From a virus (Duplodnaviria > Caudoviricetes), in the IMG/VR virus record IMGVR_UViG_3300033076_001295, positions 1 through 38,540 of that record: DNA of 38,540 bases; one strand, written 5' to 3'. The number at the start of each line of letters is the position of its first letter. The stretch's first letter is position 1. The position numbers and the translations under genes were made by a program. The notes beneath the pieces were generated by a model that worked only from the letters and a program-made list of their open reading frames with translations, did no database searches and was not told the origin of the DNA. This document shows, piece after piece, positions 75 through 16,258 of the stretch.

Positions 75-833
75 ATGGACCAAAGTACACAATATGGACA
101 AATGGATTTTAATCTTCCGCATGATATAGTATCACTACCAACTAAAGGGGTATTCTACAAACCTAAAAAAGAAAGTTTGAAAGTTGGTTACCTTACAGCT
201 ACTGATGAGAATTATTTATCATCACCAAACATTATTAATGATGGTATCATACATACCCTACTTAAAAATAAAATATATGAACCTGGATTTGACATTAACC
301 AAATGTTGGATGTGGATGTACAGGCTGTTTTAATTTTTTTACGTAACACTTCTTTTGGGAGCGAATACGAATTCAAAATTAAAGACCCTAGAACAGACAT
401 ATTTTTTGAAACCTCTATAGTTTTAGACTCAATAAAAATTAAAGAGCCCGATGTGAAACCAAATTCTGAAGGATTATTTGATTTTACACTACCTAAAAGT
501 CAACGAAAAGTACAATTACGATTACTTAATTTGGGTGATGAAAGAGAAATTGATAAAATGAGGGATTCATATCCTGACAAAATGGTAGCACCAATAATTA
601 CAAAAAGACTTGAAAAATCTATTGTTTCTGTAGATGGGGACACAAATAGAGAAAATATTGTTAAATTCATTAGTCAACTACCAATAATTGATTCTAAGGA
701 ACTTAGAAAATTTCTTAAAAGGTGTGAACCACAATTAGATTTACAAAAAACAGTAATAGCCCCGTCAGGAGAAAAAGTTACAATCGATGTGACTTTTGGG
801 GTTGAATTTTTTCGTCCTTTCTTCGGAATATAA
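75..833 (+). CDS. Baseplate hub / tail assembly chaperone, T4 gp26-like
   Basis: 252-aa ORF with N-terminal 'VSLPTKG..Y', 'LTATDENYL', 'DVQAVLIFLR..SFG..Y' and a C-terminal 'FGVEFFRP' pattern recognised from T4-like gp26-family proteins. It lies upstream of the tape measure gene. Confidence 0.7.
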   Translation: MDQSTQYGQMDFNLPHDIVSLPTKGVFYKPKKESLKVGYLTATDENYLSSPNIINDGIIHTLLKNKIYEPGFDINQMLDVDVQAVLIFLRNTSFGSEYEFKIKDPRTDIFFETSIVLDSIKIKEPDVKPNSEGLFDFTLPKSQRKVQLRLLNLGDEREIDKMRDSYPDKMVAPIITKRLEKSIVSVDGDTNRENIVKFISQLPIIDSKELRKFLKRCEPQLDLQKTVIAPSGEKVTIDVTFGVEFFRPFFGI

Positions 834-966
834 AAAAAATATTTTAGACGAATATTTTTTATTAGCAAAAGAAATTAATTTGTCTTATCATGACCTCTTA
901 CGTATGCCTGTTTTCGAAAGAAAATACCTTGTAGGTAAAATTGTTGAAATGTATAAAAAACAATAG
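811..966 (+). CDS. gp51-like chaperone C-terminal extension in the +1 frame; probably reached by frameshift from the 75..833 ORF (not in the ORF track)
   Basis: The +1 frame is open from 793 to TAG at 964-966 and reads FVLSSEYKKNILDEYFLLAKEINLSYHDLLRMPVFERKYLVGKIVEMYKKQ. 'YHDLLRMPVFERKYL' resembles the 'MPxxERxxY' motif of gp51-like proteins. The only ATG (904) is inside that motif. Confidence 0.65.
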   Translation, partial: FVLSSEYKKNILDEYFLLAKEINLSYHDLLRMPVFERKYLVGKIVEMYKKQ

Positions 967-973
967 ATATTCC

Positions 974-980
974 TATTTAT
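974..980 (+). promoter_or_regulatory. Putative phage late promoter motif TATTTAT
   Basis: TATTTAT 12 nt before the ATG at 993; the same motif recurs before other structural genes. Confidence 0.6.
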
Positions 981-992
981 TAAATAAAAACT

Positions 993-2810
993 ATGTTATT
1001 TTTCCAAAGTGAAGTTGAGGGTTCGGGTGCCAGTAAGTTTAAGAATATTTCTGGTGAAAAGGGTCAATTAGATGCATTAAAGCAGTCTTTTACGGATTAT
1101 GTTGCAACTGTAAGTCTAGATTTAGACAAATTACATGATGTTGTTAGAAAACAACAATCACAAATGGTTGGTATTGACACCGCAGCTAGAAATGTACTAA
1201 GAAGTATGGGTGGTGTTGCCGACTTCACAGGAAAAGGAGCCGCTCGTGCAGATGAGTTTAGAAGAACCTTAAGTAGAGCATTAGACAACGTAATTTCAAT
1301 TGGAGGTTCATTAAAAGATGTGTCAGAAGCTGCTGCGGGGTTAGCAGAATCTATGGGAAGAATGGTCAATCCATCTGCTGAAGTTTTAGCAAACATAGTA
1401 GCGACAAGTAAAGCATTCGGACTAACAACGAAAGAAACTAGTAAAATGGTTACCGACATTGTTAGATTTGGAGGAACCCAAGAGGAGGCGTTAGAAACCA
1501 TGAAAGGAATCGCTAACGAAGCAAGAAAATCTGGTATTAACACTGCCGCATATATGAAAGCAGTGCAGGGTGGATTAAAAATGGCGAGTGGGTTTGGATT
1601 CAAAAACGGTATTGATGGTTTGAAAAATATGGCCAAACAAGCGGCAATGTTAAGAACAACAATAGAAGGAATTGGAGCTAAAGGACTCCAAGCAAAGGTT
1701 TTAGACCCTGAAGGCGCAATTGAAGCTGCAGCAGGATTTCAAATGTTAGGTGGAGCTATAGGAAAACTCGGAGACCCTTTCCAACTACTACGTATGGCTC
1801 AAAGCGATATGGAAGGATTACAAGATGAGTTAGCAAAATCAACCGCATCTGCTTTTAGTTTTAATAAAGAAACAGGAGAATTCAAAGCATCAACTCAAGA
1901 TTTATATAGACTGAGAGCACAGGCTGAATTGACAGGCGCTAATTTTGACGAAATGTTGGAATCGGGTCGTGAAATGGCTAAGTTGGATTTTATTAAAAAT
2001 TCAGTAGATTTAGATGGTCTTACTGACGACCAAAAAGGCGTTTTATCAAGTTTAGCACAAATAGATAAAAAAGGGAAAGTACAAGTTGATATACCTGGTT
2101 TTGAAGAAGGTACAAGAGATTTAACTGAATTAATGAAAGATGATAAATTTAAAGAGGCATTAGACCAATATCAAGTTGACTCTACAAAATCGGCAAAAGA
2201 TATTGCATTAGAACAAATGAATATCGAAGATAAACAATTAGCAGCATTACAAGGAATCGAAAAGGCTGTGGTGTTAGGTATGACTGCGAAACAACAAGAT
2301 GATTTAATTAATGCGGTCGAATCTCAAAATAAAGATGCTGCTGATGCATACAGACAATTGACCGGTAAAGTAGAAAAGACAATGGCTAACGTTGCCGTAG
2401 GAGTAACCAAAGGTGAAGCAAGTGCGGTTACGGTAGCAAAAACATCGACTACTAATATGGCAACTGAGGTTGAGGCGGCAATAACAAACGCAGGATTTAC
2501 CACAATGCCTGATGGATTTATACCTTCAAATAGTAGTGCACCAACAATTTTATCAAAAGGTGCAATTTATAAAGGAATCGTTGGTGATGATGTTGCTGTT
2601 GGTGTAGGTTTAGGTGATGCTTTATCAAAAGCAAGTTCCGGAAATTTAACAGGAGCTATAGATATTAATATAAATCTAAACGGTTCAATTAATGGAGACC
2701 CTGGACAGGTTGCGAAAATGTTTAATTCGCCAGAAATTCAAAAACAAATTATGGACACAGTTCTTTATAAATTGAATGATTATAAAAGACAACAAGGCGT
2801 ACTTGCCTAA
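993..2810 (+). CDS. Tail tape measure protein
   Basis: 605 aa, Ala/Gly/Lys-rich and apparently helical, directly downstream of the tail chaperone genes and upstream of baseplate genes. Confidence 0.75.
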   Translation: MLFFQSEVEGSGASKFKNISGEKGQLDALKQSFTDYVATVSLDLDKLHDVVRKQQSQMVGIDTAARNVLRSMGGVADFTGKGAARADEFRRTLSRALDNVISIGGSLKDVSEAAAGLAESMGRMVNPSAEVLANIVATSKAFGLTTKETSKMVTDIVRFGGTQEEALETMKGIANEARKSGINTAAYMKAVQGGLKMASGFGFKNGIDGLKNMAKQAAMLRTTIEGIGAKGLQAKVLDPEGAIEAAAGFQMLGGAIGKLGDPFQLLRMAQSDMEGLQDELAKSTASAFSFNKETGEFKASTQDLYRLRAQAELTGANFDEMLESGREMAKLDFIKNSVDLDGLTDDQKGVLSSLAQIDKKGKVQVDIPGFEEGTRDLTELMKDDKFKEALDQYQVDSTKSAKDIALEQMNIEDKQLAALQGIEKAVVLGMTAKQQDDLINAVESQNKDAADAYRQLTGKVEKTMANVAVGVTKGEASAVTVAKTSTTNMATEVEAAITNAGFTTMPDGFIPSNSSAPTILSKGAIYKGIVGDDVAVGVGLGDALSKASSGNLTGAIDININLNGSINGDPGQVAKMFNSPEIQKQIMDTVLYKLNDYKRQQGVLA

Positions 2811-2848: not shown

Positions 2849-5800
2849 ATGGAGAGTCCACTATCATTTAATTCAAGTGAAAATTTTAGAAAAAAACTGT
2901 TGGTAAGAAATTTACCACCATACAAAGTAGATAATGCTTTTTCTAATGATAGTAAACCTGGAACCTCGGAATATGTAAATAATGATTTAACACCAATCGA
3001 TTCACCAAGTGTTGAACAAATTGGAAACAAACAAGAACAACTATTATTCCCAATTAATCAATATGGACCACAAAATAACTCAAAAGAGTATGGTAACACT
3101 GTTTCAATAAATGACAACTTAAATTACAAAACAAACGAGGGTGAATATGGGTATCCCGACTCAATCGGTAGTGATTTAGAAATTATTGGTAACGAAACTG
3201 AAAAACAAATCATTATTAAAAATGTTTATAGACCTGAAAATGGTGTATCTGATTTTGGTTCTACTGCGTGGTATATAAATAATGATAAAGTAATAAGTAC
3301 AATAGGTGAAGGGGAATACACTGTTCAAGATACTGTAGGTAGTAGTTTAGAAGTAACAGGTCAAATTGATAGACCAACTTTAATCACTAATAATCAGTAC
3401 GGACCTGAAAACTTACCAACTACCGAAGTTTCAATTAATAATAATTTACAAACAAATGCAAATGAAGGTGAGTATGGGTTTCCTGATACGGTAAATAGTC
3501 CTTTAGAGAACGAAGGTATTAACGACAGGCCAGGACTGATTGCTATCAACCAATATGGTCCTGAAAATTTACCAAACTCAGAAGTTGCAATTAATAACAA
3601 CTTACAAACAAATGCAAATGAAGGTGAGTATGGTTTCCCTGATACGGTAAACAGTGAACTTCAGATAGTAGGTGAAGAAGTAAGAAAACCTAATTTTCTA
3701 CAAAACCAATGGGGACCTGAACAAGGTCAAAGTGATGTTGAAGTTGAACCATATAGAAAATTAAAAAGTTTAACCATACCACAAGGTAATTATGACGTCA
3801 CAGATTCCAACGGGAGTGTTTTAGAATTAGTTGGTGGTGTTAAAGAAACCGAGGCATACCTATCTAATAGATACGCAACTGGTGACGGTGAGTATGACCC
3901 GTCAGATTTCAAAACACTTCAACTGAAGGCACTACAATTACCATATGCTAATTCTGATAGTACATTTATATTTTTACCATCAACATATACCCCTTACAGT
4001 ATTTTATTAAGTGATAACCCTTCCGGTTCGGAGGGTACGCTATCTGAAGACTCAAGTCTTGCAAACATTGGTGCAAAATCCTTGAATAAGGAATTCAAAC
4101 ATAGAGTTGCATATGAATTATACCAACAAACATTAGGTCAAGTAAACATATTCAACTCAAACGTAAATCCCGACACTGGTGAAATATCAGTAAAACCTAA
4201 TACTGACCCATTTAATGCTATAGGGTTATTAACAGGTAATATTCCTATAGTCTCAAGAGTTTATAATATTACAACACCCGATTTTCTATTTGGTCAAGGC
4301 ATTAACTTCGCAGCAAAACTTGCAGGGTTATATTCACCGTATTCTTACATACCTGGTGAATATTTTGATTACCCCGACCCAATCGGTAATGGACCATACG
4401 AAAATCCACTTTCAATATTAGGTGGCGCCATAGGTTCATTATTTAGTGTTTTACAACCTGCAAATCAAAATTCTTCTGAATTGTTGATTGAATACACTTC
4501 GGTACCTACCCGTAAATTATTGTATGACCAACTTAAATACAATCCTTATCGACCAAATTATAAGATTGGAAACAACTTAACAGCACCAAAAGGTGTGTTT
4601 TATGTTGGAGATAGAAAAAGTCATTTAACTGAATTAATTTCACCTTCAGATGAATTACCTTTATCGAAAGATGGGACAAAATCGGCGGTAGGTCCTGTAC
4701 AATCGTATGGTAATGTTGGTAAATTATATGAGGGTTCACAATTAGATGATACTAAATTTGGTCTAAATAGTAGAAACTTTTATAGTGCTGGTAGTACTAA
4801 AGATGGGTGTAAATGGATTGGAAGTACGGTGTTTGGAAGTTTTACATGGACAGGTCAATTAAAAACCGGAGGTAAAAACAACCCACTTCCAGGTAAATTA
4901 CAAGGTAGAGGTGGAGAACAATTCTCAGATAATAGTGAATTTACTTTTGGTAATTTAACTGATTTCGAAAAAAGTGATTCTGTAAAATACAGTTTCACAC
5001 CGGGCTCAATTTTAGATGTTACTCAAAAATTAGTCAATGCGGGACAAAGAAGTAAAAATCCTAAGGAACACGTCGGTAACGCAATAAATCAAATTACTAA
5101 AGTGTTTAATGATGGATACCAAGAAATAACTAAAGGTTCCAAAGTTTTAAGATACACTACTAAAAATTCTGTAGGAGGAGGTAATGTAGAAGGTCTCGAA
5201 TATTGTAGAGTCTTTACCAAAGATAGACCATATTTTACATATGATGAGTTACAAAAAAATGAAGGTAATATTAGGAAATATACTAATTCAGTATTAGATA
5301 ACACATATAATACCAACATAGCGCCTGTTGATGGTAGTAGTTTAAGAGATGGTAAAGTAAAAAAATACATGTTCTCTTTAGAAAATTTGGCATGGAGAAC
5401 TTCAAATAGAAAAGGATTTACTTATGATGATTTACCTGCATGTGAAAAAGGACCAAATGGAGGTAGAATCATGTGGTTCCCACCATATGATTTAAGCTTT
5501 GATGAAAGTATCAGTACTTCATGGCAAGACAACAACTTTTTAGGTAGAACTGAACCTATTTACACTTATACTAATACGTCAAGAAAAGGTAACATATCAT
5601 TCAAGATTATTGTCGACCATCCGTCAATTATGAACTTATTAGTTAGTGAGGAACTAAAAGACATTGGGGATAATAATGAAATTACACAAATAATTGATTC
5701 GTTTTTTGCGGGATGTACAAAATATGATTTATGGGATTTAGTAACTAAGTTTCCTAACTTTACACCTAATGAAATTTTTGAAGCACAAGTTCTTACCACA

Positions 5801-8800
5801 CAAGGAGTTGTTACCGTTGTTGGTGAAAACAATTATACAAACATCCAACAAACAGTTGATATTGGAGGTCAAACTATAATACCACCAACACCTTCACCAT
5901 GTATTGTTTATGAATATCAAGTTGGTGTAGCAACTAACCTAACATATACTGCGTGTTCAGATACTTTGATTGTAGATGCGTTAACACCAGGGGATAAAGG
6001 TCAGATTTGTGTTAGAAGAGATTCAACACCTCAGTTTTCTGTGCCCGACCCAACAAATACAGTAACACCAACAGGGCAAGAATGTAAATCAGGGAGCACT
6101 ACACCGGTTCAAACAACAACGATTACACCAGTACCACTTAACATTTCATTTCCTGATGTTGGATTTTATTTTGATAATAACTTCCCTATTGGTACTGATA
6201 CGTATGATGAAACCGTAACACAAGACTTTGAGTATTGGTATAATCTTTATATTGCAAATGAAAATTGTTATCTAAACGGTGGTTGTAGTAATCAAGATTT
6301 TAATGCGGCAATAGATAAAATTATTCCATATAGCTCAACAACAAGAACAACTGATTTTACAAATATAGTATTGAACTTACCGCCAAATGAAGGGAATGTT
6401 TACTTGGGTAAGTATATAGATGCTAGAAAATCTGAAGTACAGAAGTTTTATTCATTTATTAAATCTGAATTTGCTGAGGCTCAAAAATTTGTAAAAACCA
6501 TAGGGGATATGATGTTATCAGGTAAAATTGTTGAATTTTCACTTGTTGCGAGTGCTTCGGCTACTAGTAAACCTTCATATAATTTAGCACTTTCAAAAAG
6601 AAGGGCGGATTCAGTATTAAAGTGGATATACAAACAAAAATCTTCTGATGGTACAACTTTCCAAAAATATAAAGAACAAGGTAAGTTGAAAATAACTGTA
6701 GACGCTAAAGGTGATACTGCAGAAATTCAGGAAAACACATATAATTCTATAAAGTGTAACGAAAGGTTTAAGATGTCAGATGCTCAACAATACGAAGGTA
6801 CTGTATCTGTTAATGCTATGGCTTGTCGTAGAACAAGAATTGTATTCAAAAATTACAATGAAAATAACTCAGTAACTGAAAACCAAACACCTGAACCTAA
6901 CAATTCACAGTTAAATCAAGAACAGGCGGGTCAAGATTTTATTATTGTTGGTCAATCACAACAATCAACACCTACATCTACCCCACAACAACCAAACACA
7001 TCGACCAATCCTTTTGTTAATCAAGGACCTACTACAACTCCAAACAATAACACACCGCCAAATGTTAGAGAGCAAGAGGTTCAAACACAACAAAGACAAG
7101 TATTCAAAGACTTAACAAAAAAATTAGCAAGAAAGTTGTTGACGGAATGTAACTATTTTGAGTACATCAAAAAAACTGAACCAATGATTTATGACGGGAT
7201 TAAATCTAAAATAAAATATTTCCAACCGGCATTCCACTCAATTACACCTGAAGGGTTGAATTCGCGTTTAGTTTTCTTACAACAATGTATGAGACCTGGA
7301 GATACTATCCCAACAATATCGACAACAAATAATGGTCAACAAGAACTTTTATATAACGACGTTTCAAACAGTGCGTTTGGTGCACCACCAATCTGTGTAC
7401 TAAGAATTGGTGATTTCTTTAATACAAAAATAGCAATTGACCAAATATCTTTGAAATATGAAGACGGAAGATTTGATTTGAACCCTGAAGGTATTGGTGT
7501 ACAACCTATGATTGCTGATGTTAGTATATCATTTAGTTTCATTGGGGCTCATGGTTTAGCTGAACCGGTTGCAAAATTACAAAATGCGTTATCATTTAAT
7601 TATTACGCAAACACAGAAATGTATGATGAAAGAGCTGATGTTACAGAACAATTACCACAATTAGCAGAATACGATAGACAAGTCATCGACCAAGTTGAAG
7701 CTCAATTGGGTGTTGTAAACACTGCAGCACCAAGACCTGAAGTAAATAATGGGGGGGTTACTATAGGTACTACTCTTACCAATGTTTTAGATTTTAATAG
7801 TTCAGCAACCACAGGTACAATCAAATACCAAGAAGTGATGAGTCAATTATCTGACTCAACAAAAGGATATGTTGAGAAAGTTACAAACACGTTAGAAAAA
7901 ATAAATCAAGATTTATTAATTGGAGGACTTCAAATTTTTACAAAAGATAGAAAATACGTTGAAGGATACTTTAATTATCTTGGAGGTAATATATCTGATA
8001 CCGTTAATATTTTTGGTTACTCGGACAAATATCAAGAAAAAATTGAAGAGCTGGCTAATAAAGCAAAACAAGATGTTGATAATGGAATTTGCCCAATTTT
8101 ATCTAATGTGACAAATGAAAACTTAACAGACGTTCAAATTAGAAAATTCAAAAGACAAGTTAAGTTAGACATCGATAAGAGAAAAGATGAAATGTTACAA
8201 ACTTTAACAGTAGATTCAAATGAAATAACTTCAACTGAAATACCTTACATTAACTTGATAGATAAAATTAATTACGTTTCAAATAGTAATGACGGTTTTG
8301 TAAAGAAAAATAATTCAACAATTATATATAATCTTTCTGGTACGACTGAGGTAACACAACCTACACTACCTAATGTGAATAATACATTACAAGAATTAGT
8401 TCAAGACTCACTTATAATCAAAAATGATTTGAATACTTTCTATCAGAAATTACAAGATTTCAAACTTATACCAACAGGTGATTTTGATTACAGTTCAAAT
8501 TTCACACAAGACATGTATTTTAGTACACCACAAACACCTAATGTAGTTGCTTATTTTATGTTGTTTGGTAAGCAAATTTTGGACGACCCTAATAAATTCA
8601 AAGATAATTTGATACAATCCGCAATACCTAATGCAAATAGCGAAGATACTCAAAAATGGAATGAGTTTTTGGATGTAAAAATAAATCACCCACAAAACGG
8701 TCTGTACGTTATTTATAATTCTTCTAAAACTCAAATGGATAAAAATATTGCAGATTTCAAATCAACATACTACAACCCTACATTTAATACTTATAATCCC

Positions 8801-8941
8801 TATAATAAAAGTAAGGTTAGAAAAATGTGGTACCAATCCCAAGTAGTGTCACAAGAACCTCAAAATAGTAACTTGAAAATTATTTATTCAAGTAAAAGTG
8901 CAAGTTGGGATAAATTTAACTTACAAAAGTCATTTAAGTAA
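2849..8941 (+). CDS. Giant tail/baseplate protein: N-terminal ~52-aa repeats, split tail-tube-initiator-like domain, OmpA-like peptidoglycan-binding motif
   Basis: 2030 aa. Tube-like segments 'WFPPYDLSFDESISTSW...LGRTEPIYTYTNTSR' and 'PPICVLRIGDFFNTKIAIDQISLKYE...PMIADVSISF'; OmpA signature 'YNLALSKRRADSV' and 'CRRTRI'. It follows the tape measure gene. Confidence 0.6.
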   Translation: MESPLSFNSSENFRKKLLVRNLPPYKVDNAFSNDSKPGTSEYVNNDLTPIDSPSVEQIGNKQEQLLFPINQYGPQNNSKEYGNTVSINDNLNYKTNEGEYGYPDSIGSDLEIIGNETEKQIIIKNVYRPENGVSDFGSTAWYINNDKVISTIGEGEYTVQDTVGSSLEVTGQIDRPTLITNNQYGPENLPTTEVSINNNLQTNANEGEYGFPDTVNSPLENEGINDRPGLIAINQYGPENLPNSEVAINNNLQTNANEGEYGFPDTVNSELQIVGEEVRKPNFLQNQWGPEQGQSDVEVEPYRKLKSLTIPQGNYDVTDSNGSVLELVGGVKETEAYLSNRYATGDGEYDPSDFKTLQLKALQLPYANSDSTFIFLPSTYTPYSILLSDNPSGSEGTLSEDSSLANIGAKSLNKEFKHRVAYELYQQTLGQVNIFNSNVNPDTGEISVKPNTDPFNAIGLLTGNIPIVSRVYNITTPDFLFGQGINFAAKLAGLYSPYSYIPGEYFDYPDPIGNGPYENPLSILGGAIGSLFSVLQPANQNSSELLIEYTSVPTRKLLYDQLKYNPYRPNYKIGNNLTAPKGVFYVGDRKSHLTELISPSDELPLSKDGTKSAVGPVQSYGNVGKLYEGSQLDDTKFGLNSRNFYSAGSTKDGCKWIGSTVFGSFTWTGQLKTGGKNNPLPGKLQGRGGEQFSDNSEFTFGNLTDFEKSDSVKYSFTPGSILDVTQKLVNAGQRSKNPKEHVGNAINQITKVFNDGYQEITKGSKVLRYTTKNSVGGGNVEGLEYCRVFTKDRPYFTYDELQKNEGNIRKYTNSVLDNTYNTNIAPVDGSSLRDGKVKKYMFSLENLAWRTSNRKGFTYDDLPACEKGPNGGRIMWFPPYDLSFDESISTSWQDNNFLGRTEPIYTYTNTSRKGNISFKIIVDHPSIMNLLVSEELKDIGDNNEITQIIDSFFAGCTKYDLWDLVTKFPNFTPNEIFEAQVLTTQGVVTVVGENNYTNIQQTVDIGGQTIIPPTPSPCIVYEYQVGVATNLTYTACSDTLIVDALTPGDKGQICVRRDSTPQFSVPDPTNTVTPTGQECKSGSTTPVQTTTITPVPLNISFPDVGFYFDNNFPIGTDTYDETVTQDFEYWYNLYIANENCYLNGGCSNQDFNAAIDKIIPYSSTTRTTDFTNIVLNLPPNEGNVYLGKYIDARKSEVQKFYSFIKSEFAEAQKFVKTIGDMMLSGKIVEFSLVASASATSKPSYNLALSKRRADSVLKWIYKQKSSDGTTFQKYKEQGKLKITVDAKGDTAEIQENTYNSIKCNERFKMSDAQQYEGTVSVNAMACRRTRIVFKNYNENNSVTENQTPEPNNSQLNQEQAGQDFIIVGQSQQSTPTSTPQQPNTSTNPFVNQGPTTTPNNNTPPNVREQEVQTQQRQVFKDLTKKLARKLLTECNYFEYIKKTEPMIYDGIKSKIKYFQPAFHSITPEGLNSRLVFLQQCMRPGDTIPTISTTNNGQQELLYNDVSNSAFGAPPICVLRIGDFFNTKIAIDQISLKYEDGRFDLNPEGIGVQPMIADVSISFSFIGAHGLAEPVAKLQNALSFNYYANTEMYDERADVTEQLPQLAEYDRQVIDQVEAQLGVVNTAAPRPEVNNGGVTIGTTLTNVLDFNSSATTGTIKYQEVMSQLSDSTKGYVEKVTNTLEKINQDLLIGGLQIFTKDRKYVEGYFNYLGGNISDTVNIFGYSDKYQEKIEELANKAKQDVDNGICPILSNVTNENLTDVQIRKFKRQVKLDIDKRKDEMLQTLTVDSNEITSTEIPYINLIDKINYVSNSNDGFVKKNNSTIIYNLSGTTEVTQPTLPNVNNTLQELVQDSLIIKNDLNTFYQKLQDFKLIPTGDFDYSSNFTQDMYFSTPQTPNVVAYFMLFGKQILDDPNKFKDNLIQSAIPNANSEDTQKWNEFLDVKINHPQNGLYVIYNSSKTQMDKNIADFKSTYYNPTFNTYNPYNKSKVRKMWYQSQVVSQEPQNSNLKIIYSSKSASWDKFNLQKSFK
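3056..3900 (+). repeat. Intragenic tandem repeat of about 52-57 aa (NQYGPEN...EGEYG.PD...S.LE), about 5 copies
   Basis: The two best copies start at 3392 and 3548 (156-nt period) and share TTACAAACAAATGCAAATGAAGGTGAGTATGG exactly at 3446-3477 and 3602-3633; flanking copies are more degenerate. Confidence 0.85.
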
Positions 8942-9258
8942 TGGACTACTATAATAGATATAAGGACTTCTTAATAAATGGTCAACAAACCGTTGTACCA
9001 TTTTTGTCTATACCGTCTAGAGTGACTGACCAACAGTATTTATATAGGGCTGGTCAGAGTAGGTTAGATAAAATAAGTTTTGAAAGATATGGTACACCGT
9101 ATTTTGGTTGGTTGATTTTGGCTGCGAACGCATCTTTTGGTGGTTTAGAACAAAATATACCTGATGGTACTGTTTTAATTATACCATATCCGTTGACAGC
9201 AGCATTACAAGACTACAAATCTGCATTAGATACATATATATTCTATTATGGCCGCTAG
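8941..9258 (+). CDS. Small baseplate wedge / LysM-like (gp53 / tail X-like) protein
   Basis: 105 aa with 'RLDKISFERYGTPYFGWLILAAN...IPDGTVLIIP', the LysM/gp53-type pattern; TAATG overlap with the upstream gene. Confidence 0.7.
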   Translation: MDYYNRYKDFLINGQQTVVPFLSIPSRVTDQQYLYRAGQSRLDKISFERYGTPYFGWLILAANASFGGLEQNIPDGTVLIIPYPLTAALQDYKSALDTYIFYYGR

Positions 9259-12200
9259 ACAAGTACAAAACAAAAGAATATACATTGAAACAGAATATGA
9301 TAATATTTTAGTTGTTAACCCAAACGAAATTTACAATTCGGATGGAGTTAGACAAGAACGCCTTGTTGACCATGAAGACTTGGTATACTACGCTAACTTA
9401 GAAACTTTTTTAATACCAAGGACAAAACTTGCAATAGGGGAAGCTTTCCCAACAATAGAAAATACTACGATTGCGACACTTTTTCAAGGGGATGAAGACT
9501 TAAAAGTAAACTTTTTACAACCAAAAGGGAAACAATATTTTGATACTAGTTGGTCAAATCAATTAACAGGTGAAGGTAGTAGAGGTGGTAATGCTCTAAA
9601 CCAAACAGTTGAAACACCAATATCTATAGACGGTAGAAGGGTTTTTCAAAAATCAGTTAAAAACTACGAAGATACCCAACTTCTTGGAATTAAATCAATT
9701 AGAGTAAATATAAAGGGTACTGGAGTTCCTGAGGTAAATATTGAAATGGTAGACATACAAGGAAGGTCTTTGTTTGAACAAGGTGACAACTCACTTTATT
9801 CAGCTTTCTTTAATTACCCTTACCCATTATTTTATTTAACACTTAAAGGGTATTATGGTAAAGCTATAAGATATAGATTATCCCTTTTATCTTTCAATGC
9901 TACTTTTGATGCGGACACAGGAAATTATAACATTTCATTGAAGTTAGTTGGAAAGTTCACCGCTCTACTTTTTGATACTCCTTTAGCATATGCTGTGAAT
10001 GCACCAAAAATGTATAATACACAAATTACGGTAACCGAACCAAACGGAAATAAAAGTTTTTTCAACACGTATAAAGGTAGACAAAAACTTAATGAGGTTT
10101 ACGATATATACGAAAGAAAAGGATTGATTCCCGCGGGTTTCCCAAGGTATTCATTAGAAGAATTTGTCTACAGGGCACAAAAATTTACGACCGATATCCA
10201 ATCAGAATTAACAGATAAAAAAGACTTCACTAAATTAAATGACTTAGAAGACTTCTCAAGAAGTTTAGAAAAGTTAAATAAAGAAATTTATGAATATGCA
10301 ATTAATAATGTTGTAGACAGAAATAGTTTTTATGTGGTTGGTGAAGAAATATATTACCCATTCAAAAAAGAGTTAACATACCAATCAAGAGAAGATTTCA
10401 AAACAAAAATCACAGAAAGAATACAAGCTTACACAGATGATTTGAAAAGAAATACGACTTTCGGTGAAAATTCAACTCAAACAAATAACCAACAAACATA
10501 TCAAATTAATGTAACCATCAAGGGACTGAATGACATCTTAAAAAAATTAGACTTCAACACTTGGAGTTCAAACAAACAAGATGTTGTAAACACCTATCAA
10601 GCAAGATATCCTGGTAGATTTATAGATAGTAGTTCAGCATCCACAGAATATCAAAATTTTTTGAAAAATGAACAAATCGTTGCATTACTTGAAACTAAAG
10701 TCAAAGATGAAAATGGTGATTGGGTTGAAGATACCCCTGATTATTTGGTTTTCGGTAACAAGTTTGTGGCTGATGGCACATATGTAAAAAATTCTTATTT
10801 AGATAAGTTAGATATTATGTCCACTTCATTAAAGGCAAAACAAAAAATTATTGAAGACGACCTAACAAAATATTATTCTGAAAAACAACTCAAAAACCCA
10901 TCCCAAGGAGGCCTTGGATTCAAACCAACAATAAGAAACGTATTTGCTATTATTTTTGCAGGTGCGGACGCGTTTTACAGATTGATGGATGAAAACCATA
11001 GGGAGGCTTGGAATGTAAAATCAAATAAAAATAGATTATTATCTGTAATAGGTGATAAAAATTTTTCCGTAGATGCTTTGAATACTATTTCCAAATCAAG
11101 TACGGAACTTAATGACAACAACGTTGTTTATCCTTGGCCACTTTACTTTACTTTGGAAAAACAAAACAATGGTAGTGATTTGTATACTATTCAATACCCT
11201 GGTGATGCAAGATATATAACACAAACAAAGGCTTATGATTATACAATATGGCCTGAGGTTGGGTTTGTTGAGGCCTATATTAAAGCAACATTAGAAAAAG
11301 AAAAAGAAGAAAAAAAATATACTTACGATAATCCAAAAGACGTAACCACTTACGTTTCTTGTAATGCTATTGAATTTCCATTCAAGACTGCACCTTACCA
11401 AGATTTGAATATTATAAAAACCTTTTATGAAATTTTTGAAAGGTCTTATCTATGTTCATATTACGGGAATCTACCAACAGAACTTACACAAAAAAAACAA
11501 ATTGATAAGTTTTATGGTGACATAGAAAGTCTGAATATTAGTTTAGTTGCACCATCTAACATTGAAATCAATCAGATTCTTAAAACTTCAAAATTTGACC
11601 TTAAAACATTAATTGAGTACATGAAAAAAATCTCTAATGATGGTAAGGGTCAAAGTTGGCAAATGTTTATAAGAGACTATTTCAATACTGAGTACATCAA
11701 AACATTATTACAAAATGTAAATGAAATCTATTCTATTGATACTATAGATGGTAGTTCAATAAAGGTATCTGCGGATTTACCTTTAGCGAATAATATGAAG
11801 GAATTTTTGGAAGATAGTGGGACGTCAAAGAAACAGACTACAGATGTATATCCATTTACTGACGTTAATTGGTTAAAACAATATATGTCAAATGGTGAAA
11901 ATTTATCTAGTTTTGAAGAATATAACAACACAACAAGAAGTTATATTTACTTGGATGACAAAAAAACAATTGCAAGAGTAAATGCAACTGAAAAATATCA
12001 AAATCTTAAGTTATTCACATCCAATTCTGTTTTTGGTAATAATACACAACCACTATTATCAAACTCACAAACCGGACAACCAATAGATTCTGCGTTGTCA
12101 TTAAAAAATTATTATACAACAAGAACATATGAACAACTATATTTAACTGAATCTTTCTTAGACTATGGTGCAAGTTATAGTGGTAATTTAGGAACATTTA

Positions 12201-15200
12201 TACAAACAACATCATTATTAAACACTCCATATTTTGTAAATGCACTTATGGATGGTGTACACAAACAAAAAATTGGTGATGTAAATCCATTTGCTGCTTT
12301 AGGATATATGTATTTGAACTCACTTCCTTTAATAACAACTAAAGAAAAAATCAAAGATATATCTAATAATGTCACAACTGACTTAGATTACTTAGCCGCA
12401 ACTTTCAACAAGTTTTCATCAATTCATCAAGTTCCTTACGCTTGGGTATTGAAGTACGGTTCAATTTGGCACAGATATAAAACATATGTTGAAAAAAATA
12501 TAGACATACTTGAAGAAACATGGAAAGACTTTGACTACGTGTTTTCATACGACCCTACAAGTGGAAACAGTGCTACGAATTATACTATCCTAAATTACAG
12601 TGGACAACCCACAAATATCACACTACAAAATGTTACGCTGTACACAACATCATTCAACAATTTTGTCAGAAAAGATTATTTTGATACAGGATTTTATCCT
12701 AAGGTAATTAATTCAGTAGAATATTATTTGAATGGTGCGGACTTGATTACAGGTTACAGTGCTAGTAATTTTAGTTCTTTATACACTAATGACGGGTTAA
12801 GAATCGGATTTAATCCAAGTAATGAGGTTTATTCATATCCACAAGGTTTTGACCCAAATAACCCAATACGAGAACTCATAAAAAGAAATTTATTTTCTTA
12901 TAGAACTTTCAGAAGTCCTGACGTTGACGGACAACCAAAAAAAATTATAATGTACCCTTCTATGGGTGGTATTCCATTTGACCAATCAATTTATGAATGT
13001 TTTACTGACCAGAAAAAAATGACAGAAGATTTATATGAAAATAAATCAATGTTTAATGGTACGGTGCGTTCAGTTTGGGGTATGTCACAATTTGGTTATT
13101 TTAATAATTCGTTAGTTAAAATGCCATTACCTACTGAATATTTGAAAATCATTAAAACTGACACAGATAAACAAAATGATTTTGATATATCAAACACTCA
13201 ATCACAATACTCTATGATTGATGAAATATTTAGTATTTTTGACGTCAATCTATTGGATAAAATGGAAGAAAAGTTTTTGAACTTCTGTAAGTTTAACCCA
13301 ACTGCGGATGACCTTAAACTTAACGATGAAAATATTACCCCAAGTTATATTCAAACAAATGGTTTAACTAACGCTAATCTCAAATCACTCAAACCACAGA
13401 TTGAAAACATTTTTTCCTACCAAGATACATTTTTTCAACAAGTAAATGAAAGTGTTGATACGCAGACTTTGATGAATCAACAAATAAACAACATGTACGA
13501 ATCAATCAAAAGTTTTGTTAATTTTGATTGTGTATTAAAAATTGCAAACCCAATTAATTTTGATAAAAAACTATTCAATAGTTTTAGTACGTTGGCTAGT
13601 GTACAATCGGTAGATAAATACAAATTTGACCCATATGTTAAAGGGTCTTTACCTGGTGATGGTTCGGCAACGACACTATTACAAAGTGTTACATCATTAC
13701 CTCAATCTTGGTCAACCCTTAGAAAATATTTAGGATTCAGTTTAGTTCCAAATATTGATTACTCTGAACAAGTAAATAATGTTTACCCTTCAGTACCTTC
13801 TGTAAGTACACAAACTTCAGCAACTACGGCAACAACTTCTGCAACTACTGTGGTTGTGTCTACACCACTACAGTTAGAATATAGAGGAGATTCATCAACT
13901 ATTTTTGCATCCAATAATCAGTCAAGATATATAAATGTAAAAAAATCAGATGGCAATTACCAAGTATTCAAATTTTTAGGAGAAACAAACGTCAACCTAA
14001 TTGACTCAAGAATTGAATTATTTCAAATATTTGAACCAAACTCAAACATTCAGGATTTGAATAATTTGGTACAAAGTTCATCAACTTTTGGTTCAAATAC
14101 AAATAACTCATATGTAGTAGAAGTTCAGGACGTACCGGGATTATATCAATTAGTTATTACATATTCACCTAATACCCCATCTTCATTTGAGACGACAAAA
14201 ATAGTTACTAATATATCTACCATCGCCGGATTACAAACAACTATTCCGCAAACGGCAAACGCAACATCGATTAGCCAACCATTATCAGGTACACAATCTT
14301 GTGTGGTTTCGGATTTCTTTATTGAAAATAATATAAGATTTTCACCCCAAAACATTTCTTTACTTTATCCAATAATTAGAATATATGCAGAACAAAAAAG
14401 AACAGACCCTGGATTTAATAAAAACAAATTAAATACACTAATAAATAATTTTTTACAAGATAGAGAGACACTCCAAAACGCAATGGTTAATGAAACATTC
14501 AGTAACCTAAACAAAATATTATCAGATATCAAAGTTGACGTAAATCTACCTCAAACACCATTAAATGGGGATACTACAAAACTATCACTTTATAATACGC
14601 TTAAAACGTTTAATGATAAATGGATTGCAGGTTCCGACTTTACAACGAACACAATATTTGAAGATTTCTTATTTATGGATAGGTCAAATACTGATTTGGG
14701 TGATTCTTTTACGGTTGATTTAGAAAAAGTGGTAAATAGGCTTAATATTGACAGTAAACAAGAACAAAGTTTAATGAGTGTTGTAAGTAGTATTTTGGAA
14801 GATAACTACTTTATTTTTATGGCGATGCCTGCTTATGTTAATTTCTATGGTATACAACAAGCAATGAAAAACGGACAACCATTACAAGATAGTTTAGTTG
14901 GTAATTCCTTATTTGGGACTTATTTAGATGTGGACTATAGCCAATCAAGTCCTAAATTTTTGTGTTTATATGTTGGTAACCCTTCTGAATATCCTAAACC
15001 AAAAGAAAATTCATTTAATAGATTTGGGGACGACAGTTTTGATTTAAGAGTTCCTGATAACCCACTTAGAGTTTCAGACCCAAATAGAAACTATTCTTTG
15101 AACAATAGAGTCGTAGGGTTTGCTGTTGATTTTGGTATAAGAAATCAAAACATGTTCAAAAGTTTAGGGTTGGACATGTCTGAAATGAAAAATACGGCTG

Positions 15201-16258
15201 AAACTTTTAAGGTTTATGCGGATATGGGTAATTCGGTTTCAGGTGATAAAGTCGCTCAACAATCACAATCACTCTATAGTATATATAAGTCAAGGTCATA
15301 TAATTGTACGGTTCAGAGTATGGGTAATGCCATGATTCAACCAACTATGTATTTTATTTTGAGACATGTACCTATGTTTTATGGACCATATTGGATAACG
15401 GAAGTAAATCATAATATTACTGAGAGAGGTTTTGATACCGAGTTTAAAGGGTCAAGAATACCAAAATACGCTTTACCAAAAGTTGATAATCTTTTAGCAT
15501 CGGTTAATAAACAAGTTATCGCAACCTTGAAACAATTAGCAGGTAAAGATAAAAGTGCTGAAGTATTGATACCGACGACAGAAGAAAAAAATGCGAGCAA
15601 AAACCCAACATTACAAACATTAAATGGTGATGATTCAAAATGTCAACAAAATATACCTACTGAGTTTGCACAAGTACCTTTTGAAACTTTAATCCAAACA
15701 CCATTCACTAAAACTGAAATTATACCTTTGATTGAACAAACCACAACAAATAAAGGTATGAGAGCATTATTATTAGGGTTAGCCCAAATATTACCATCGG
15801 TTACTGAAAACAATGGTATGTTTAATAGTGTAAACTTTAACCCATACGATATATTAACCGTTAGAAATTTTGGTGGTAATTTGAATTCATTTATAAAAAA
15901 ACAATCATGTGTCGTTGTTAATAATAATTCTTATAGATTTGTTAAGTTTGATTCATTTTCAGAGTCCATGCAATTTGTTAATGCTTACATGGCGGCACCA
16001 TTAAATAACTTAAATGCGTTAGTAGCCCTGAACCCTAACTCAAATCAAGATAAAAGTTACGGAGAAGCATTATTCCAAATTGCTTATACGAGTTGGATTA
16101 CAGATTTGGCATCAGGAAATCCAACAGCGGTTCCACCGGTACCTGCCTTGACAACTACAGAAATTAAAACTAAAACTCAAGACAAATACCCACCTAGTCA
16201 GGTCACTTACCAAGATTATGTTCAAAAGTTTACAGACGCTTGGAAGCAATTTAAGTAA
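9248..16258 (+). CDS. Giant baseplate hub-like protein (gp27/gpD-like termini) with a possible degenerate glycoside-hydrolase C-terminal domain
   Basis: 2336 aa. N-terminal 'GIKSIRVNI...PEVNIEMVDIQG...FYLTLKGYYG' and late 'CTVQSMGNAMIQPTMYFIL...YGPYWITEVNHNITERGFDTEFKGSR' resemble hub (gpD/gp27) segments. It sits after the LysM-like gene, as in contractile-tail operons. Confidence 0.55.
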   Translation: MAARQVQNKRIYIETEYDNILVVNPNEIYNSDGVRQERLVDHEDLVYYANLETFLIPRTKLAIGEAFPTIENTTIATLFQGDEDLKVNFLQPKGKQYFDTSWSNQLTGEGSRGGNALNQTVETPISIDGRRVFQKSVKNYEDTQLLGIKSIRVNIKGTGVPEVNIEMVDIQGRSLFEQGDNSLYSAFFNYPYPLFYLTLKGYYGKAIRYRLSLLSFNATFDADTGNYNISLKLVGKFTALLFDTPLAYAVNAPKMYNTQITVTEPNGNKSFFNTYKGRQKLNEVYDIYERKGLIPAGFPRYSLEEFVYRAQKFTTDIQSELTDKKDFTKLNDLEDFSRSLEKLNKEIYEYAINNVVDRNSFYVVGEEIYYPFKKELTYQSREDFKTKITERIQAYTDDLKRNTTFGENSTQTNNQQTYQINVTIKGLNDILKKLDFNTWSSNKQDVVNTYQARYPGRFIDSSSASTEYQNFLKNEQIVALLETKVKDENGDWVEDTPDYLVFGNKFVADGTYVKNSYLDKLDIMSTSLKAKQKIIEDDLTKYYSEKQLKNPSQGGLGFKPTIRNVFAIIFAGADAFYRLMDENHREAWNVKSNKNRLLSVIGDKNFSVDALNTISKSSTELNDNNVVYPWPLYFTLEKQNNGSDLYTIQYPGDARYITQTKAYDYTIWPEVGFVEAYIKATLEKEKEEKKYTYDNPKDVTTYVSCNAIEFPFKTAPYQDLNIIKTFYEIFERSYLCSYYGNLPTELTQKKQIDKFYGDIESLNISLVAPSNIEINQILKTSKFDLKTLIEYMKKISNDGKGQSWQMFIRDYFNTEYIKTLLQNVNEIYSIDTIDGSSIKVSADLPLANNMKEFLEDSGTSKKQTTDVYPFTDVNWLKQYMSNGENLSSFEEYNNTTRSYIYLDDKKTIARVNATEKYQNLKLFTSNSVFGNNTQPLLSNSQTGQPIDSALSLKNYYTTRTYEQLYLTESFLDYGASYSGNLGTFIQTTSLLNTPYFVNALMDGVHKQKIGDVNPFAALGYMYLNSLPLITTKEKIKDISNNVTTDLDYLAATFNKFSSIHQVPYAWVLKYGSIWHRYKTYVEKNIDILEETWKDFDYVFSYDPTSGNSATNYTILNYSGQPTNITLQNVTLYTTSFNNFVRKDYFDTGFYPKVINSVEYYLNGADLITGYSASNFSSLYTNDGLRIGFNPSNEVYSYPQGFDPNNPIRELIKRNLFSYRTFRSPDVDGQPKKIIMYPSMGGIPFDQSIYECFTDQKKMTEDLYENKSMFNGTVRSVWGMSQFGYFNNSLVKMPLPTEYLKIIKTDTDKQNDFDISNTQSQYSMIDEIFSIFDVNLLDKMEEKFLNFCKFNPTADDLKLNDENITPSYIQTNGLTNANLKSLKPQIENIFSYQDTFFQQVNESVDTQTLMNQQINNMYESIKSFVNFDCVLKIANPINFDKKLFNSFSTLASVQSVDKYKFDPYVKGSLPGDGSATTLLQSVTSLPQSWSTLRKYLGFSLVPNIDYSEQVNNVYPSVPSVSTQTSATTATTSATTVVVSTPLQLEYRGDSSTIFASNNQSRYINVKKSDGNYQVFKFLGETNVNLIDSRIELFQIFEPNSNIQDLNNLVQSSSTFGSNTNNSYVVEVQDVPGLYQLVITYSPNTPSSFETTKIVTNISTIAGLQTTIPQTANATSISQPLSGTQSCVVSDFFIENNIRFSPQNISLLYPIIRIYAEQKRTDPGFNKNKLNTLINNFLQDRETLQNAMVNETFSNLNKILSDIKVDVNLPQTPLNGDTTKLSLYNTLKTFNDKWIAGSDFTTNTIFEDFLFMDRSNTDLGDSFTVDLEKVVNRLNIDSKQEQSLMSVVSSILEDNYFIFMAMPAYVNFYGIQQAMKNGQPLQDSLVGNSLFGTYLDVDYSQSSPKFLCLYVGNPSEYPKPKENSFNRFGDDSFDLRVPDNPLRVSDPNRNYSLNNRVVGFAVDFGIRNQNMFKSLGLDMSEMKNTAETFKVYADMGNSVSGDKVAQQSQSLYSIYKSRSYNCTVQSMGNAMIQPTMYFILRHVPMFYGPYWITEVNHNITERGFDTEFKGSRIPKYALPKVDNLLASVNKQVIATLKQLAGKDKSAEVLIPTTEEKNASKNPTLQTLNGDDSKCQQNIPTEFAQVPFETLIQTPFTKTEIIPLIEQTTTNKGMRALLLGLAQILPSVTENNGMFNSVNFNPYDILTVRNFGGNLNSFIKKQSCVVVNNNSYRFVKFDSFSESMQFVNAYMAAPLNNLNALVALNPNSNQDKSYGEALFQIAYTSWITDLASGNPTAVPPVPALTTTEIKTKTQDKYPPSQVTYQDYVQKFTDAWKQFK

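Follow-up and report, generated by a model that had tools for sequence, protein, structure and literature searches.

The first gene of the stretch of viral DNA analysed here (the window, 38,540 bases long, taken from the AT-rich record of a large freshwater phage, ~13% complete) ends inside a second open frame, which raises the question of whether the two frames are separate genes or are joined into one protein, and by what means. The initial annotation had proposed a lambda G/GT-like pair with a fusion of ~296 aa. Comparative tests on related loci uphold this proposal: the two frames are very probably joined by recoding at a TTT TTT CGT site. A programmed +1 ribosomal shift, promoted by a hairpin upstream of the site, is the probable means by which the 252-aa chaperone would be accompanied by a minor 296-aa form, judging from the sequences.

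Two overlapping frames at the chaperone locus

ORF1 (75..833, plus strand) encodes a gp26-like tail assembly chaperone of 252 aa, the short form (TAC-N). It matches PF12322 (E 1.8e-8, 34.8 bits against a cut-off of 24.5) and phrog_150 (E 4.8e-13), and its structure model (pLDDT 85) matches phage baseplate-hub and gp26 models. Comparisons of the model with solved structures showed weak similarities to 3klu (Z 5.8), to the HK97 tail assembly chaperone 2ob9 (Z 5.6, rmsd 3.9, 90 aligned) and to 3fgx (Z 5.4), all under the level that excludes a merely common arrangement, and a Foldseek search of the PDB returned nothing at E 0.001 (best E 0.74). We take 3klu and 3fgx to be chaperone-type structures.

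The 3' end of ORF1 reads GAA (804), TTT (807), TTT (810) and CGT (813), followed by CCT, TTC, TTC, GGA, ATA and TAA. The +1 frame is open from 793, immediately after a TGA at 790-792, to a TAG at 964-966. A shift from TTT at 810 to TTC at 811 would append a C-terminal extension (TAC-C, gp51-tail-like; 811..966, plus strand) of 50 residues to the first 246, giving the 296-aa fusion.

The window starts at the chaperone gene, and the order of the upstream genes was read from relatives. One of them (G001) has the sheath gene first, then a 299-aa ORF, tube, chaperone, +1 frame and tape-measure slot; the annotations of the phages LIS04, SP-15 and HSE3 give tube, hub and tape measure. The slot after the +1 frame is occupied in the window by a gene of 605 aa (993..2810, plus strand), which has no match in Pfam or PHROG. 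Feature comparisons gave weak matches (0.91) to the TMP_3 and PhageMin_Tail clusters, at ranks 24 and 28, and the same slot is annotated as tape measure in LIS04, SP-15 and HSE3. The gene product is likely the tape measure protein. No tRNA genes were found in the window or in two 20-kb stretches of relatives.

Conservation of the predicted shift site and the probable direction of the shift

Related loci were pooled from a protein query (80), from a pattern that fixed the amino acids and left the codons free (120) and from the window, 201 in all, and 128 representatives were kept at <90% nucleotide identity; one locus without the motif (L090) and loci with <300 nt upstream were left out. The residues E-F-F-R are present in 200/201 loci, and an estimated ~1,800 matching stretches occur in IMG/VR. 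Comparison of the representatives showed that the predicted +1 shift site TTT TTT CGT (807..815, plus strand), at which tRNA-Phe would re-pair from UUU to UUU or UUC, is conserved at the nucleotide level among diverged relatives, a check proposed in the initial annotation. Codon 810 is TTT and codon 813 is CGN in all 128 loci (CGG 57, CGT 36, CGC 34, CGA 1), and codon 807 is TTT in 126. The background Arg codons of the same genes are 87% AGR; CGG and CGC account for <1% of Arg codons elsewhere in the genes, yet they occupy codon 813 in 91/128 loci. The CGN codon is followed by CCT in 126/128 loci (background 31%) and then by two TTC codons in 127/128 and 119/128 (background 17%). The near-invariance of CCT TTC TTC is explained by dual coding, since the same bases encode L-S-S in the +1 frame.

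Coding conservation switches to the +1 frame at the site. The +1 frame is open for 48-67 codons in 122/122 complete loci, with the residues F, L, S, S, D, E, P and R conserved from the first codon past the site. The -1 frame is mostly closed, running for a median of 12 codons and reaching 40 codons in 5/128 loci; no canonical -1 X XXY YYZ site was found, and the open frame is the +1 frame. The two overlapping frames do not stem from an indel either: the contigs assembled from 4 runs of as many studies, one of which may be near the source, agree at the site, and in 3 of the 4 runs a contig bridges it with at least 31 bases on each side. In three of those runs, contigs of other organisms cover only ~785-840, and this was the first sign of an island of conservation at the nucleotide level.

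Gene callers list ORFs such as the +1 frame as small genes of their own, and the frame could be translated from TTG at 796, from TTG at 802 or from a codon further on, or by ribosomes that re-initiate once ORF1 has ended. TTG is present at 796 in 110/128 loci, and a start at 802 in 45/128. However, no start is common to the 128 loci, whether TTG at 796 or 802 or ATG at 904, and the first ATG is spread over 15 positions or missing. In the window the +1 frame holds two ATGs, at 904 and 949, rather than the single one at 904 initially annotated; this miscount is immaterial because both lie far downstream of the conserved +1 residues. The TTG at 796, which lies inside the stem described below, is best seen as a by-product, since codon 795 is TTT in 112/128 loci against a background of 83%, the +1 frame carries a TAG after 796 in 3/128 and 4/128 have no NTG before codon +10. 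A separate gene would moreover leave the invariant TTT CG unexplained, and we regard it as highly improbable. In the three loci with a +1 TAG, recoding of TAG was considered and no sign of it was seen.

The direction of the shift had initially been given as +1 or -2; the comparisons favour +1 and disfavour -2. Ribosomes that moved back two bases on the U6 run, as they do in phage Mu and arteriviruses, would insert one extra Phe. The retention of TTT at 807, in 126/128 loci and in 50/50 of a sister clade, is what -2 re-pairing requires. However, 2/128 loci, which acquired the variant independently on the tree, read TTC TTT CGN, as do HSE3 and GXN1 among the cultured phages; of the two, only +1 re-pairing is possible there. 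Fused homologues also bear on the register. In the proteins P0174, P0186, P0204 and P0240, a gp26-like domain and the tail are encoded in a single ORF, and the fused-protein junction P-x4-hydrophobic-F/Y-G follows the +1 register, with two residues before the Gly and not the three that a -2 shift would leave. These fused proteins form clusters of one or two sequences, so their register is supporting rather than decisive, and P0121, P0163 and P0240 could be indel variants. A search for longer proteins returned one fusion, P0121, from a single contig, which may be a homopolymer deletion; for the genomic context of P0204, no relative was found in the viral contigs searched. Upstream duplexes are, in addition, described as opposing backward shifts (PMC6321510). 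Taken with the structure described below, a -2 shift is very unlikely. For the +1 shift, the slip was originally placed at 810 to 811; a slip from 807 to 808 is also possible and would give an identical product.

A stem-loop upstream of the predicted shift site

Folding of the 60 nt ahead of the site predicts a 5' stem-loop (757..804, plus strand), a putative +1 stimulator identified by fold and covariation. It is absent from the initial annotation and lies just beyond the coordinates covered there. The lower stem pairs 757-764 with 797-804 and the upper stem pairs 774-782 with 788-796, leaving a 9-nt bulge at 765-773. The stem-loop of the window has an energy of -16.7 kcal/mol and, taken alone, a z of -2.25. 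Across the clade the signal is much clearer: folding beats synonymous resampling at the stem-loop in 128/128 loci (-16.5 vs -9.9 kcal/mol), and elsewhere in ORF1 it does so in 62-83 of 128. The distance from the end of the stem to the U run and the E-site codon is 2-4 nt in all members.

The alignment of the hairpin comprised 125 distinct rows, with 1/128 loci out of register and left out. The paired positions are complementary in 85.5% of cells, and 9/17 pairs show two-sided changes; this level of pairing was matched by 0/500 shuffles, and controls slid along the alignment reached 36-57%. In a control that keeps relatedness, 41,328 column pairs from the last 291 bases were ranked by corrected mutual information. 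The stem pairs 776:794, 777:793, 779:791, 758:803, 761:800 and 781:789 ranked 3, 4, 15, 46, 50 and 74. Four of these six pairs join two third-codon positions, among them 776:794, 779:791 and 761:800, and the three changes at 761:800 coincide on the tree; the pair 777:793 alters amino acids. The other 9/15 ranked stem pairs do not covary strongly, being near-invariant or variable through G-U. The covariation at 757-804 thus shows a structure, not its role.

Codon usage within the stem is equally skewed. At 798, Gly is encoded by GGG in 124/128 loci (background 11.5%), which the shift site leaves unexplained; Ala 759 is GCC in 107/110 and Pro 762 is CCG in 100/127, and these codons pair with TGGGGT. 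The G run could itself be the site of a +1 slip, by tRNA-Gly at GGG_G (798-801), a reading with which the excess of GGG and the depletion of GTA, a +1 stop, at codon 801 agree. However, the stem pairs GGGG with CCCC and 4 loci show compensating changes there, 8/128 loci have no GGG_G or carry a TAG after it, and distant relatives lack GGG_G. A slip at this position is exceedingly improbable.

The bulge TCAGGAGAA (765..773, plus strand) is conserved beyond amino-acid need, with Gly GGA in 125/127 loci (background 40%) and Glu GAA in 109/111. It is 97.6% complementary to TTCTTC at 819-824, with no two-sided change and 10 uncompensated breaks. The bulge consensus TC(A/T)GGAGAA is SD-like. A small hairpin that would place the U run in a loop, by pairing 804-806 with 811-813, was rejected, as its variable pairs showed no covariation. 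No consensus fold was obtained for a 3' stimulator in the 66 nt downstream. The stem-loop had no match in Rfam at E 1, and a covariance model built on it (R1) gave strong matches to the window and one clade member only, with distant loci weak or absent.

On the basis of its position, and by analogy with engineered constructs, the hairpin is predicted to promote the shift. While peptidyl-tRNA-Phe occupies the U run, the ribosome would pause at a slow A-site CGN codon, the slowness being suggested by the rarity of CGG and CGC among Arg codons elsewhere in the genes. Once the ribosome has unwound it in passing, the stem would form again 2-4 nt behind the E site, where it would play the part that a short-spaced SD duplex plays in prfB, favouring a +1 shift and blocking -1. 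The peptidyl-tRNA-Phe would then re-pair one base forward, from 807 to 808 or from 810 to 811, to yield E-F-F-V-L-S-S. If the roles follow those of lambda G and GT, coating of the tape measure protein would fall to the short form, and the long form would join the tape measure to the tail tube protein.

Engineered upstream hairpins are reported to promote +1 shifts on E. coli 70S ribosomes at ~60% of the SD effect, mimicking an internal SD, an effect described there only for a stalled A site without RF2 (PMC6321510), and to stimulate +1 shifts in yeast (PMC3639245). As presented in these two papers, the constructs resemble the phage site in having a stable stem by the E site, a slip-prone P-site codon and a slow A-site codon, on 70S ribosomes; they consist of designed hairpins at CUU UGA or Ty1 sites, whereas the phage stem-loop is natural, covarying, bulged and predicted, at UUU CGN (PMC3639245; PMC6321510).

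The +1 shift might also occur at the same site with the hairpin in another part, only blocking -1, tuning pausing or mRNA stability, or binding a protein through its bulge. The conservation of the bulge would suit such a part, as would influenza PA-X, which is described as shifting at UUU_CGU without an evident stimulator (PMC5009743), and covariation by itself is silent on role. The fixed distance of 2-4 nt between stem and E-site codon in all members, however, and a folding excess limited to one spot of ORF1 and absent in a related clade that shifts -1, argue for stimulation, and a hairpin that does not stimulate is unlikely.

Transcriptional slippage would give a product identical to that of the +1 shift. 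The nascent hairpin would make the polymerase drop one U of the U6 run, and the U5 mRNA would encode the long form. The hairpin followed by AA-U6 resembles a polymerase slippage or terminator signal, and the Roseiflexus IS630 element, as outlined in PMC5009743, has the same anatomy, a stem-loop 5' of a homopolymer (U5C5) with a net loss of one base. However, variants reading TTC TTT CG, which leaves three U's, persist with the +1 frame kept (2/128, HSE3, GXN1 and the locus L296), the U run is always in phase as conserved Phe codons, and a U6 run is short. Slippage is quite improbable next to the hairpin-promoted ribosomal shift.

Relatives, host and known systems

A sister +1 clade, 50 representatives related to Microcystis phage Mel-JY01, was analysed after 7/80 loci were dropped (3 without a stop, 4 with a single Phe), along with 4/6 HSE3-like loci. 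Its first Phe codon is TTT throughout, the second is TTT in 49/50, and TGG follows in 46/50; the +1 frame is open in 49/49 and keeps G-L, with other codons. Upstream folding exceeds expectation in 43/50 and 45/50 members, with other sequences, and no single consensus structure emerged for this clade (the alifold result was empty). In a cyanophage clade of 35 representatives (1/80 loci dropped), the site reads T TTT TTC G in 35/35 and the -1 frame is open in 32/32. These cyanophages carry the same 8-mer TTTTTTCG as the window, one base out of phase, and read it -1; 15/35 beat the folding control, which is no excess. This folding contrast between +1 and -1 is drawn from three clades, which are unlike in host and in GC content. 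In each of seven distant single loci a stem is predicted that ends 0-6 nt short of the site; the fold is significant in 3.

The likeness of UUU_CGN to the shift motif of influenza PA-X and amalgaviruses, pointed out in the initial annotation, holds for the in-frame motif in 128/128 loci. However, the sister clade reads TTT TTT TGG, and the codon after TTT TTT is CAC in the cultured phage SP-15 and AGT in LIS04. On these sequences the likeness appears to be a local, clade-specific convergence. PA-X and amalgaviruses share a P-site UUU, an A-site CGN and a +1 shift with the phage (PMC5052127; PMC5009743); the phage differs in using a bacterial ribosome and in having CGN in some clades only, and PA-X is described without an evident stimulator (PMC5009743).

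The assignment of the extension as gp51-like stands through a chain of profiles. Profiles of the tails of the window clade link to those of the sister clade (98.9%, E 1e-17), the sister tails link to the cyanophage tails (65%, E 6e-5), and the cyanophage profile links to residues 207-245 of T4 gp51 (E 7.8e-7). Direct profile comparison with T4 gp26, T4 gp51 and S-RIM50 gp51 was not significant. The family phrog_634 was matched weakly by 4/49 tails, and a Pfam search of the tails gave only weak matches to BrxL_N (8/49) and DUF6760 (7/49). Homology of the +1 extension to the C terminus of gp51 is thus supported by the profile chain only. The fused proteins P0174, P0186, P0204 and P0240 appear as gp51-like full-length forms in distant phages.

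T4 genes 26 and 51 were reportedly identified as tail chaperone genes by Vladimirov, Gautam and Davidson in 2022. The T4 pair shares the PF12322 family and the profile link of the tail to gp51, but T4 has two genes. A +1 state would now stand in the gp26/gp51 system beside the -1, split-gene and fused states. Poly-T -1 signals are described in TAC-N genes of T4-like phages (PMC12846349, PMC10885494), and chaperone shifts of -1, -2 and +1 are described across phages, with -2 in Mu and very likely +1 in halovirus HSTV-2 (PMC5009743). The locus resembles lambda gpG/gpGT, as summarised in PMC5009743, in that a single gene lying between the tube and the tape measure would give rise to both a short and a long chaperone, with an overlap without its own start and a conserved site. 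Lambda shifts -1, whereas the predicted shift here is +1, the gene is of the gp26 type and from a myovirus, and a covarying stem-loop lies 5' of the site.

Several cultured phages, Mel-JY01, GXN1, LIS04, SP-15 and HSE3 (L081, L083-L086), have an open +1 tail after TTT-containing sites. In the records of these five phages the tail is a separate or truncated hypothetical gene, or is missing. The shared +1 arrangement, left unjoined or absent in the records, calls for correction of these annotations. In a 595-kb phage (LR756511), a tail-like -1 frame lies near position 2269 of the locus L087, with no canonical heptamer in view. Three loci came from prokaryote genomes, and one of them, L211, has no visible tail. 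In another, L210, a MAG contig, a +1 tail follows GTT TTC C near position 2107, with an upstream hairpin of z -4.1. An in-frame ATG lies just upstream of this tail, and L210 could be a case of a -2 shift or of separate initiation.

The host is likely a member of the Bacteroidota, judging from gene arrangement and start regions: a bS21 gene on the opposite strand adjoins the head protease in 1/5 relative genomes tested (L380:1444-1680, G004), and an SD was seen by eye upstream of 0/21 window genes. Freshwater phages with Bacteroidetes as their predicted hosts are described as having the bS21 arrangement (PMC9723584). Sequestration of the anti-SD is described for Bacteroidia, along with prfB shifting that is low and independent of the SD (PMC10798248), so that a stimulator made of mRNA alone would be favoured. 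We tentatively suggest, as a possibility somewhat short of probable, that the upstream hairpin replaces the SD:anti-SD duplex in these phages of likely Bacteroidota, and that its gain fixes the direction in which TTTTTTCG is read.

The putative mechanism can be compared with that of prfB, which shares a +1 slip in the P site and a duplex immediately upstream of the E site. In the phage, however, the A site holds CGN and not a stop, the ORF1 stop lies 6-9 codons after the first Phe, and the G run pairs within the mRNA and not with 16S rRNA. Pairing of bases 795-806 with the anti-SD scores -7.1 against -5.8 for synonymous controls; the G run involved is also accounted for by the covarying stem. 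Known bacterial +1 sites mostly combine a stop or rare codon with an internal SD. A frameshift is expected for this class of gene; the upstream stem-loop is the part that would be new to specialists. In the literature found, upstream hairpins act as +1 stimulators in designed constructs only, and the phage would provide a natural, covarying example. A search that left most subscription journals outside its coverage found no publication on the hairpin or the site in phages. The large phage clade offers natural compensatory pairs for studying how structure behind the ribosome sets the frame.

Further features were noted around the locus. A TATTTAT motif (974..980, plus strand) precedes the next gene, and TATTTAY occurs near the +1 stop in 120/121 relatives and ≤60 nt upstream of 8/21 window genes. 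On the sense strand, TATTTA(T/C) lies ~18-21 nt before several structural gene starts (974-980, 2828, 28231 and 36860 in the window, and in relatives). The motif is likely a late-promoter element of the phage. A terminator-like hairpin with a U tract occupies positions 3-27 of the window, right before the chaperone gene, and is followed by TATTTAC. Two very large ORFs follow the tape-measure slot. The one at 9248-16258 (2336 aa) has no family match, and the one at 2849-8941 (2030 aa) carries repeats near its N terminus and, at 1210-1296, a stretch weakly resembling OmpA.
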